Virus genome (UHGV): UHGV-1689382
DNA length: 10,734 bases
Source: a virus
Direction: 5' to 3' (one strand)
The notes beneath the pieces are model-generated. The model worked only from the letters and a program-made list of their open reading frames with translations, made no database searches and was not told the DNA's origin. Of this stretch, positions 3,381 through 3,542 are shown in pieces. Position 1 is the first letter of the stretch, and each line of letters starts with the position of its first letter. The translations under genes and the position numbers were made by a program.

Positions 3381-3542
3381 ATGACAAAACGTCGTAAGAA
3401 ATACCAGGAAAAAGAAGAGATTCGACACCCTGATTCACCTGAGGGATTAGTGGTAGCCGCAGCAAATAACAGGGCGTTCGCAGAGCGCCTTGTTGGTGTT
3501 TACAGACTAGCCAAAGCAGGAGTGAAACATGGGCGTCGTTAA
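3381..3542 (+). CDS. Small basic hypothetical protein (53 aa, [53 protein letters not shown])
   Basis: Hand translation. Strong SD AGGAG (3372..3376) 4 nt before the ATG, and the 3' end overlaps the O-like gene start by 14 nt. Below the ORF-track size cutoff; product unknown. Confidence 0.4.
   Translation: MTKRRKKYQEKEEIRHPDSPEGLVVAAANNRAFAERLVGVYRLAKAGVKHGRR

Follow-up and report, generated by a model that had tools for sequence, protein, structure and literature searches.

The virus genome UHGV-1689382 is represented here by a stretch of 10,734 nt (the window), which corresponds to the early region of a lambdoid phage. Between its cII-like activator gene and its replication initiator gene, similar to gene O of phage lambda, lies a small open reading frame (ORF) of 53 codons. 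Comparative analysis of its homologues indicates that this ORF is protein-coding and under purifying selection. It is also an already catalogued gene, whose family and position are found in databases and in the literature, and for this reason the finding is an ordinary one as a discovery. The present work adds to this much-studied phage junction (cII-oop-O) a selection analysis of the ORF, its independence from the type of initiator, a conserved hairpin within it and its association with phage-encoded helicases. Regarding its role, we hold with about as much confidence as doubt that it works, as a true early gene in the rightward (pR) operon, both as an adaptor cistron and through a small helical protein that acts in trans.

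Coding character and family of the small ORF

The ORF is preceded by a strong Shine-Dalgarno (SD) motif and ends 14 nt inside the initiator gene, reading across the SD and the start codon of the latter. These features, as well as the coordinates of the ORF (Table 1), had been proposed in an earlier note made from the letters of this DNA, and both the sequence and the list of ORFs bear them out; the spacer between SD and ATG, given there as 4 nt, is in fact 5 nt long (taatt). A length of 53 codons is unremarkable by itself, since 73 ORFs of 40 residues or more are present in the window, and it is the conservation of the frame among homologous loci that makes this one stand out from chance.

Homologous loci came from IMG/VR and from a set with a single genome for each species, the latter contributing 17 loci that range from Escherichia to Serratia, Rahnella and Brenneria. 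An intact frame of 52-55 codons occurs in 302 of these 305 loci, amounting to 124 distinct sequences at the nucleotide level and 84 at the protein level, and the changes in length among homologues are always of whole codons. Mean pairwise differences at the first, second and third codon positions are 0.24, 0.14 and 0.51, respectively, and the pooled ratio of nonsynonymous to synonymous change (pN/pS) is 0.27. This ratio is 0.22 for codons 11-29 and 39-44, which are free of overlap with the promoter, the hairpin and the initiator start site described below, and where synonymous change (pS, ~0.68) is near saturation. The other five frames contain from 11 to 40 stops in 16 sequences, and four of them show pN/pS values above 1; the fifth, which shares its third positions with the real frame, has a pN/pS of 0.35 and 11 stops. 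Thus, the frame of the small ORF is the only one open in all homologues. The earlier note had left room for a non-coding stretch, and had suggested conservation and Ka/Ks among relatives as a check. A frame kept across Enterobacterales with in-frame indels, a pN/pS of 0.22-0.27 and a third position far more variable than the second contradict such a reading.

Broken copies are limited to single loci. In one of them (L198), the A-run of codons 10-12 has lost 1 nt, which cuts the ORF to 22 residues, whereas in the other (L372, IMGVR_UViG_3300012248_000001) the ORF is in frame with the initiator and yields a fusion of 329 residues. Both variants may be real or errors of assembly. A programmed frameshift that would fuse the small ORF to the initiator was considered and rejected: no slippery motif was noticed, and the one fused locus among the 305 is probably the result of an indel or an assembly error.

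The encoded protein matches PHROG 1331 with an E-value of 1.4e-37 and along its entire length (residues 1-53 aligned to profile positions 1-53). Its sequence is 100% identical to HK97 Gp53 and to the products of Sf6 gene 42, ST104 ORF27 and gp23 of the Shiga-toxin (Stx) phage Stx2-1717, and 94% identical to gp58 of ES18; HK022 gp53 and epsilon34 gp49 are further members of the family. The small ORF is present in 97 GenBank phage records, and Shiga-toxin phages are among its carriers. Out of 5426 complete E. coli genomes, ~960 match the 336-bp block composed of cII, oop and the ORF, 167 of them over at least 80% of the block; in these bacterial genomes the Prokaryotic Genome Annotation Pipeline (PGAP) labels the ORF a “hypothetical protein”. 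The same slot between a cII-like gene and an initiator, with the end of the ORF overlapping the initiator start, is found in the window, HK97, ES18, Sf6, HK629, HK75 and an Erwinia phage. With respect to the HK97 gene 53 family, the length, the position and the 14-nt overlap are all the same, and we see no difference.

This layout (cII-oop-“orf”-O) was already described by Hayes et al. in 2012, who cite a 162-nt gene of HK97 as an example of an ORF in this slot, and who indicate that lambda naturally lacks the ORF (orf48) that P22 has between oop and gene 18 (PMC3349717). The term “unannotated” of the earlier note is consequently right relative to lambda, but not for HK97 Gp53, Sf6 gene 42, ST104 ORF27, ES18 gp58 or Stx2-1717 gp23, all of them annotated. 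In the same way, that lambda has no gene in the slot between cII and O agrees with the literature (PMC3349717) and with our motif hits in IMG/VR; that it carries oop/tO instead does not stand, since the window has an oop-like unit too. Neither records nor literature offered an assigned function for the HK97 gene 53 family, and a survey of the literature on DUF2740, HK97 gp53, phrog_1331 and P22 orf48 gave no functional account.

A shared start site at a mosaic joint

The ORF begins within a conserved sequence of 33 bp, ACTGGATCAATCCACAGGAGTAATTATGACAAA, which the Sf6 record names “bsq5; boundary sequence”, and which is identical to the 33-bp sequence used by Hayes et al. to locate oop/pO in lambdoid phages (PMC3349717). 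Within it lie the 5′ end of oop and the -10 box of the pO promoter, and the small ORF takes from it its SD, its ATG and its first codons. The sequence is also a mosaic joint, where at least four cII/oop alleles meet four types of right-hand genes. A scan of IMG/VR for the motif GGATCNATCNACAGGAGTNATTATG gave 119 matches listed, which were classed by the gene that comes next. Among the matches listed, this is the 53-residue ORF in ~44, a lambda-type O (MTNTAKILNF...) directly in ~41, a 48-residue ORF of the DUF2740 family (P22 orf48 type) in 27 and something else in 3. In three IMG/VR contigs (L142 and two more), the start site of the boundary sequence opens a gene of 214 residues (MTYENDKFQVLK...GFVYVLSNECMPGIYKIGMT...), with neither a small ORF nor O, which looks like an inserted accessory gene.

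Therefore, the small ORF starts from the same SD-ATG region that lambda uses for O itself. As lambda O is made from it, this is a working start site, a fact that argues strongly, if indirectly, for translation of the small ORF. Between lambda and the window, the SD, the spacer, the ATG and the first two codons are alike, and conservation extends to the pO -10 and to the 5′ end of oop. The difference is that lambda opens O directly, whereas here ~148 nt of extra coding sequence, with a second SD, precede the initiator.

On the opposite strand, the -10 box of the pO-like promoter (CATAAT) is the reverse complement of the ATTATG at the start of the ORF, with which it coincides, and bears an upstream TG (extended -10). 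The first ~9 codons of the ORF overlap this promoter. The -10 is seen in the minus-strand alignment of the lambda, 53-residue and DUF2740 classes. The predicted -35, in codons 7-9, is weak and divergent from that of lambda (TGGTAT/CTGGTA, 2-3 of 6 positions), which would explain why a consensus promoter scan of the window did not call the pO-like site. A common -10 with a divergent -35 has been described for a lambda/P22 hybrid (PMC3349717).

The putative RNA transcribed from this promoter, of ~68 nt (77 in lambda), is complementary to the 3′ end of cII, and its 5′ end adjoins the SD of the small ORF. Its ends were placed by homology to lambda oop. As in lambda, it would form two hairpins with the terminator inside cII, where a terminator scan finds 14 pairs followed by a T-run. 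The two-hairpin fold reaches z-scores of -4.8 to -4.9, and four other oop alleles, including that of lambda, fold alike (-3.5 to -5.3) despite their different terminator sequences. An oop-like feature is annotated at the same place in the HK629 record, and Rfam has no family for either the oop-like RNA or the hairpin internal to the ORF.

Comparison with related phages reveals sharp breaks of homology at 3223-3224 (within cII), 3356, 3390 and 3559. In a cluster of 44 loci homology starts at 3223-3224, delimiting a conserved block from 3224 to 3559. Homology to Stx2-1717 begins at the left edge of the boundary sequence (3356), and homology to mEp043 and Sf101 ends at its right edge (3390). Homology is lost in 43 of 98 loci at 3559, ten codons into the initiator, and only these ten codons of the initiator travel with the small ORF in the conserved block. 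Past this point, those loci encode an initiator of 296 residues without Pfam family (HK022 gp54 type, e.g. L020 2649-3539), only 22% identical but with the same first ten residues, followed by a different DnaB-family helicase (31% identical). In this way, the first ten codons of the initiator (3529-3559) are common to two unrelated initiator families.

The 53-residue ORF is found before three types of replication modules: a P22-18-like initiator with a DnaB-like helicase, an HK022-gp54-like initiator with an HK022-P-like DnaB, and an ES18-gp59-like initiator with a Toprim/DnaB_C primase-helicase. Copies of the ORF that are 100% identical are paired with cII proteins 48-100% identical, initiators 22-100% identical and helicases 31-100% identical, and the ORF combines with at least four oop alleles. 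The occurrence of an identical ORF before at least three initiator/helicase modules indicates that the ORF is not bound to the particular O-like gene of the window.

The gene that follows the initiator was compared in a census of those loci where it could be classified. A phage-encoded helicase follows the initiator in 244 loci with the 53-residue ORF and in 22 loci with the DUF2740 ORF. A lambda-type O makes direct use of the shared site in 34 loci, none of which has a small ORF; the gene after O is there lambda P (32) or one for a DnaC-like AAA+ protein (2). Among classified loci, therefore, both families of small ORFs are found only before modules that encode a helicase. This association is as would be expected if the small proteins served replication with a phage helicase, or neutralized a host factor that lambda P handles itself.

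The second of these families, DUF2740 (PF10872), is unrelated to the first. Its 48-residue ORF, of the P22 orf48 type, is exemplified by mEp043 gp53 (L100 2882-3028; also L107 and L115), and resembles the ORF of the window in its slot between oop and the initiator, in the SD-ATG of the same boundary sequence and in its first codons (MTK). It likewise precedes three types of initiator/helicase modules, and its stop overlaps the start of the initiator by 8 nt (ATGAGTAA) in 108 of 108 loci. Different initiators of DUF2740 loci share MSN at their start. The DUF2740 ORF also carries a stable hairpin (CAGCCUGG...CCGGGCUG), placed 38 nt upstream of the initiator ATG and coinciding with the best conserved motif of its peptide (QPGRFRAE); its sequence diversity is too low for covariation analysis. 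Homology between the two proteins was rejected: the hhalign probability is 0.6%, with an alignment confined to 10 residues that come from the shared boundary DNA. Moreover, mEp043 gp53 matches PF10872 at 8.9e-29, whereas the 53-residue protein has no Pfam family at E <= 0.1.

Overlap, hairpin and possible roles

The 14-nt overlap with the initiator, whereby the stop falls 11 nt past the initiator ATG, is kept in 297 of 302 loci, and two more show 17 nt (stop 14 nt past the ATG). It remains constant although residues 2-5 of the initiator vary. A purine-rich SD for the initiator, 6-8 nt before its ATG, is present in 18 of 18 diverse homologues, and forms codons 46-48 of the small ORF (A-G-V). 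Synonymous change is halved in codons 45-53 (pS 0.32), which points to a double constraint on this segment, as peptide and as SD/ATG of the initiator. In a comparison with shuffled upstream sequences, the unpaired probability of the initiator SD-AUG was not significantly below the controls in 15 of 16 homologues; 13 of the 16 show a trend towards lower accessibility, and one reaches 0.01. A structural masking of the initiator start site is thus unsupported. The earlier idea that the ORF is a coupling element that sets the translation of the O-like gene fits the constant geometry of the overlap and the invariant SD of the initiator; on the other hand, this SD is strong in itself, and the initiator start site shows no significant masking. 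From the arrangement of the sequence, translational coupling of the small ORF to the initiator seems plausible.

In the middle of the ORF, the messenger RNA can form a conserved hairpin (13 bp in the window) that covers codons 29-39 (N-R-A-F-A-E-R-L). Its core of 8 bp pairs positions 3472-3479 with 3483-3490, leaving as the loop GCA, the codon of Ala34. Across 71 distinct sequences, 95.2% of the cells of the core are paired, a level reached by none of 500 shuffles, compared with 32-50% in slid controls. Covariation is observed between codon 32, at its first base (G in Ala, C in Pro, U in Ser), and the synonymous third base of Arg36, with counts of 28 GC, 21 CG, 12 GU, 7 UG, 1 UA and 2 unpaired. 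The frequent G.U pairs indicate that the hairpin belongs to the plus-strand messenger. An intrinsic terminator was considered here and rejected, as no conserved U-tract follows the hairpin and the terminator scan made no call. Inspection revealed no complementary partner in the initiator leader for a pseudoknot with the hairpin loop.

There is a plasmid precedent for this type of architecture. IncFII, IncI1 and IncI2 plasmids have a short ORF that runs over the start of the initiator and is under the control of an antisense RNA (PMC8053102). As in the R1 Tap-RepA/CopA, IncI1 RepY-RepZ/Inc RNA and IncI2 RepR-RepA systems, the end of our short ORF lies over the initiator start codon. In those circuits the antisense target is just 5′ of the ribosome-binding site of the short ORF, a position that the oop-like unit, predicted here from sequence alone, would fit. 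In the plasmid leader model (Tap), it is the act of translation that matters, and not the peptide. Three differences separate the phage locus from these circuits: the peptide of the small ORF is conserved, with a pN/pS of 0.22-0.27 that speaks against a dispensable sequence; the initiator SD is strong and shows no significant masking, and no pseudoknot partner was seen; and the established target of oop is cII, not the initiator.

With regard to the protein, an AlphaFold2 model built from an alignment of 35 sequences has moderate confidence (mean predicted local distance difference test score, pLDDT, of 67.6) and shows helices at residues 21-29 and 31-49. The 20 N-terminal residues are modeled as disordered and are highly charged (KRRKK, then EKEE), and would be followed by a predicted C-terminal helix of ~28 residues, Ala-rich and amphipathic. 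The conserved residues (L23, A27, N30, F33, A34, L37, Y41 and A44) appear to line one side of the predicted helix at heptad-like intervals, which suggests pairing with another helix. The nucleic-acid-binding peptide imagined in the earlier note may be read solely from the basic N-terminal stretch. Scans against Pfam (E <= 0.1), NCBIfam and PADLOC gave no match, a PDB sequence search nothing meaningful (best E 8.4), and Foldseek searches of BFVD and PDB with this model of moderate confidence no match either. A profile search among 1.84 billion representative proteins recovered only 24 short relatives (representatives at 50% identity), with no fusions and no distant family. Likenesses to cIII, Rop or N (arginine-rich motif) were also considered from the sequence, and no search backed them.

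How could all these elements work together? In the reading we prefer, ribosomes loading at the lambda-O-type start would first make the 53-residue peptide, and would then terminate atop the initiator start, where the conserved SD would permit either re-initiation or fresh initiation. The small ORF would be the first, adaptor cistron joining non-lambda modules (initiator plus phage-encoded helicase) to the conserved cII-oop junction, and initiator translation would thereby come after a start site adjacent to the oop:mRNA duplex. As the peptide is selected for its sequence, it most likely acts in trans; and as it does not co-vary with the type of cII, initiator or helicase, its target would be common to all of them, either a host protein or a nucleic acid. 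Our best guess, a conjecture, is that the peptide takes part in replication with the phage's own helicase, or in the takeover of host replication. An analogy is offered by ORF104 of the Staphylococcus aureus phage 77, a small phage protein of 52 residues that disables the loading of the host helicase. The two proteins share a size of ~50 residues, a gene beside phage replication genes and phages that bring their own helicase or loader, without similarity of sequence or fold.

Several points weigh against this preferred reading. The support for translation of the small ORF is drawn from sequence, and no homologue, domain or fold match points to an activity of a protein whose family is narrow, with those 24 representatives. 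The initiator, having a near-optimal SD of its own and a start without significant masking, may not need the small ORF at all, and overlaps this short are common among the closely packed genes of phage operons. Lambda, in turn, manages without such a gene. Finally, the association with helicases may be mere historical linkage, because lambda O is without the ten-residue linker codons that recombination would use.

A simpler alternative keeps the trans-acting protein alone, one that blocks, for instance, a factor of host replication or proteolysis, and takes the overlap as compact packing. We regard it as possible, if rather unlikely. It would account for the purifying selection on the peptide, for an initiator with its own strong and conserved SD and no significant masking, for a host or generic target in view of identical ORFs beside divergent cII genes, initiators and helicases, and for the presence of the ORF only with modules that carry their own helicase. 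However, it does not explain why the overlap and the stop position are held in nearly all loci even where initiator residues 2-5 differ, nor why the unrelated DUF2740 family keeps the same architecture in the slot, and the domain and fold searches suggest no activity for such a protein.

At the other extreme, the ORF and its hairpin could constitute a phage version of the leader-ORF switch, combined with a peptide that disables a host helicase-loading factor. The oop duplex, through RNase III, which is known to act on the oop duplex of lambda (PMC12197685), would set the ribosome load on the ORF and hence on the initiator, and the hairpin would define the 5′ end of the initiator messenger or govern re-initiation. 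This is a long shot. If true, it would explain why both families of small ORFs occur only with modules carrying their own helicase. More generally, should the small ORF tune initiator translation or disable a factor of host replication, it would be relevant to the onset of replication of Stx phages and of P22/HK97-type phages after induction. The coding status of the ORF, its independence from the initiator and its occurrence only with helicases narrow the experiments worth doing.

The ORF could also belong to the lysis-lysogeny switch of cII and oop, as a Rop-like modulator of oop-cII pairing or as a cIII-like stabilizer of cII. This is suggested by the block that in 44 loci spans the C-terminal third of cII, oop and the ORF, by the place of the ORF as first cistron after the oop target, and by the Ala-rich predicted helix with its heptad-like pattern. 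Nonetheless, the ORF is freely combined with four or more oop/terminator alleles and with cII proteins that share only 48-57% identity, the joint at 3356 splits it from cII in Stx phages, and the same switch operates in lambda, 434 and 21, where the ORF is absent. PDB sequence searches and Foldseek found no similarity to Rop or cIII. We deem a role of this kind very improbable.

Just as hard to sustain is a leader ORF acting exclusively in cis, in the manner of R1 Tap, where translating matters (by delivering ribosomes or melting the hairpin) and the peptide is irrelevant. Such a leader would suit an ORF whose end overlaps the initiator start, with an antisense RNA target immediately 5′ of its SD and a conserved hairpin within, as well as the use of two unrelated ORFs for the same slot, and the plasmids offer a precedent (PMC8053102). 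Conservation of the peptide goes, however, beyond what the hairpin, the promoter and the SD could impose, as shown by the pN/pS of 0.22 in unconstrained codons with synonymous sites near saturation; besides, the initiator start is not detectably sequestered, and no pseudoknot partner of the hairpin loop was found by inspection. The idea that there is no gene, and that the open frame is a by-product of the pO promoter (first ~9 codons), the messenger hairpin (codons 29-39) and the initiator SD/ATG (last ~8 codons), would agree with the reduced pS at both ends of the ORF, but its probability is close to negligible given the coding pattern of the stretches between these elements (pN/pS 0.20-0.31, pS 0.61-0.70), indels that are all multiples of three, and frames intact from Escherichia to Serratia, Rahnella and Brenneria in all but three of the 305 loci, with frame-breakers only as single loci.

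Other features of the window

The features of the window are collected in Table 1.

Table 1. Position of the small ORF, its regulatory elements and the neighboring genes within the 10,734-nt window
Feature	Coordinates	Strand	Remarks
cI	1997-2629	minus	
cro-type gene	2733-2948		
cII-like activator gene	3065-3346	+	Pfam Phage_CII, E 4e-30; 3′ third (from ~3224) in the conserved block, overlaps the oop-like RNA
oop-like antisense RNA, ~68 nt (predicted)	3304-3371	-	5′ stem-loop, terminator hairpin 3344-3312 and U-run 3311-3302
Conserved 33-bp boundary sequence	3356-3388		“bsq5; boundary sequence” in the Sf6 record; identical to the 33-bp sequence of Hayes et al. 2012
SD of the small ORF (AGGAG)	3371-3375	+	5-nt spacer (taatt) to the ATG
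pO-like -10 (CATAAT)	3378-3386	-	Reverse complement of ATTATG at the ORF start; upstream TG (extended -10)
Small ORF, 53 residues	3381-3542	+	ATG 3381, TAA 3540-3542; HK97 gene 53 / Sf6 gene 42 / ES18 gene 58 family, PHROG 1331
Conserved mRNA hairpin	3467-3495	+	13 bp in the window; codons 29-39 (N-R-A-F-A-E-R-L)
Initiator SD (AGGAG 3518-3522) and ATG (3529)	3518-3531	+	Within codons 46-51 of the small ORF
Replication initiator, O-like	3529-4350	+	P22 gene 18 type; Pfam Phage_rep_O
DnaB-family helicase	4347-5723		After the initiator; followed by nin-region genes
Further ORF, 162 residues	9040-9528		

Towards the right end of the window, positions 9738-9839 of the plus strand give weak, sub-threshold Rfam matches to the tag region of transfer-messenger RNA (tmRNA; 21.9 bits, E 0.35). 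The matches fall between the ORF that ends at 9528 and a putative S-holin-like ORF that starts at 10453. ARAGORN detected no transfer RNA or tmRNA. The stretch is possibly a decayed remnant of an RNA of this kind.

Among the nin-region genes, an ORF of 200 residues (6206-6808, plus strand) shows an HNH-like motif on reading of its sequence, and may be an insertion of the homing-endonuclease type. Directly downstream of cI, and overlapping its 3′ end, an ORF of 158 residues (1596-2072, minus strand) sits where lambda has rex. It contains an internal hydrophobic stretch that resembles a signal peptide, and may be an accessory gene expressed from the prophage.

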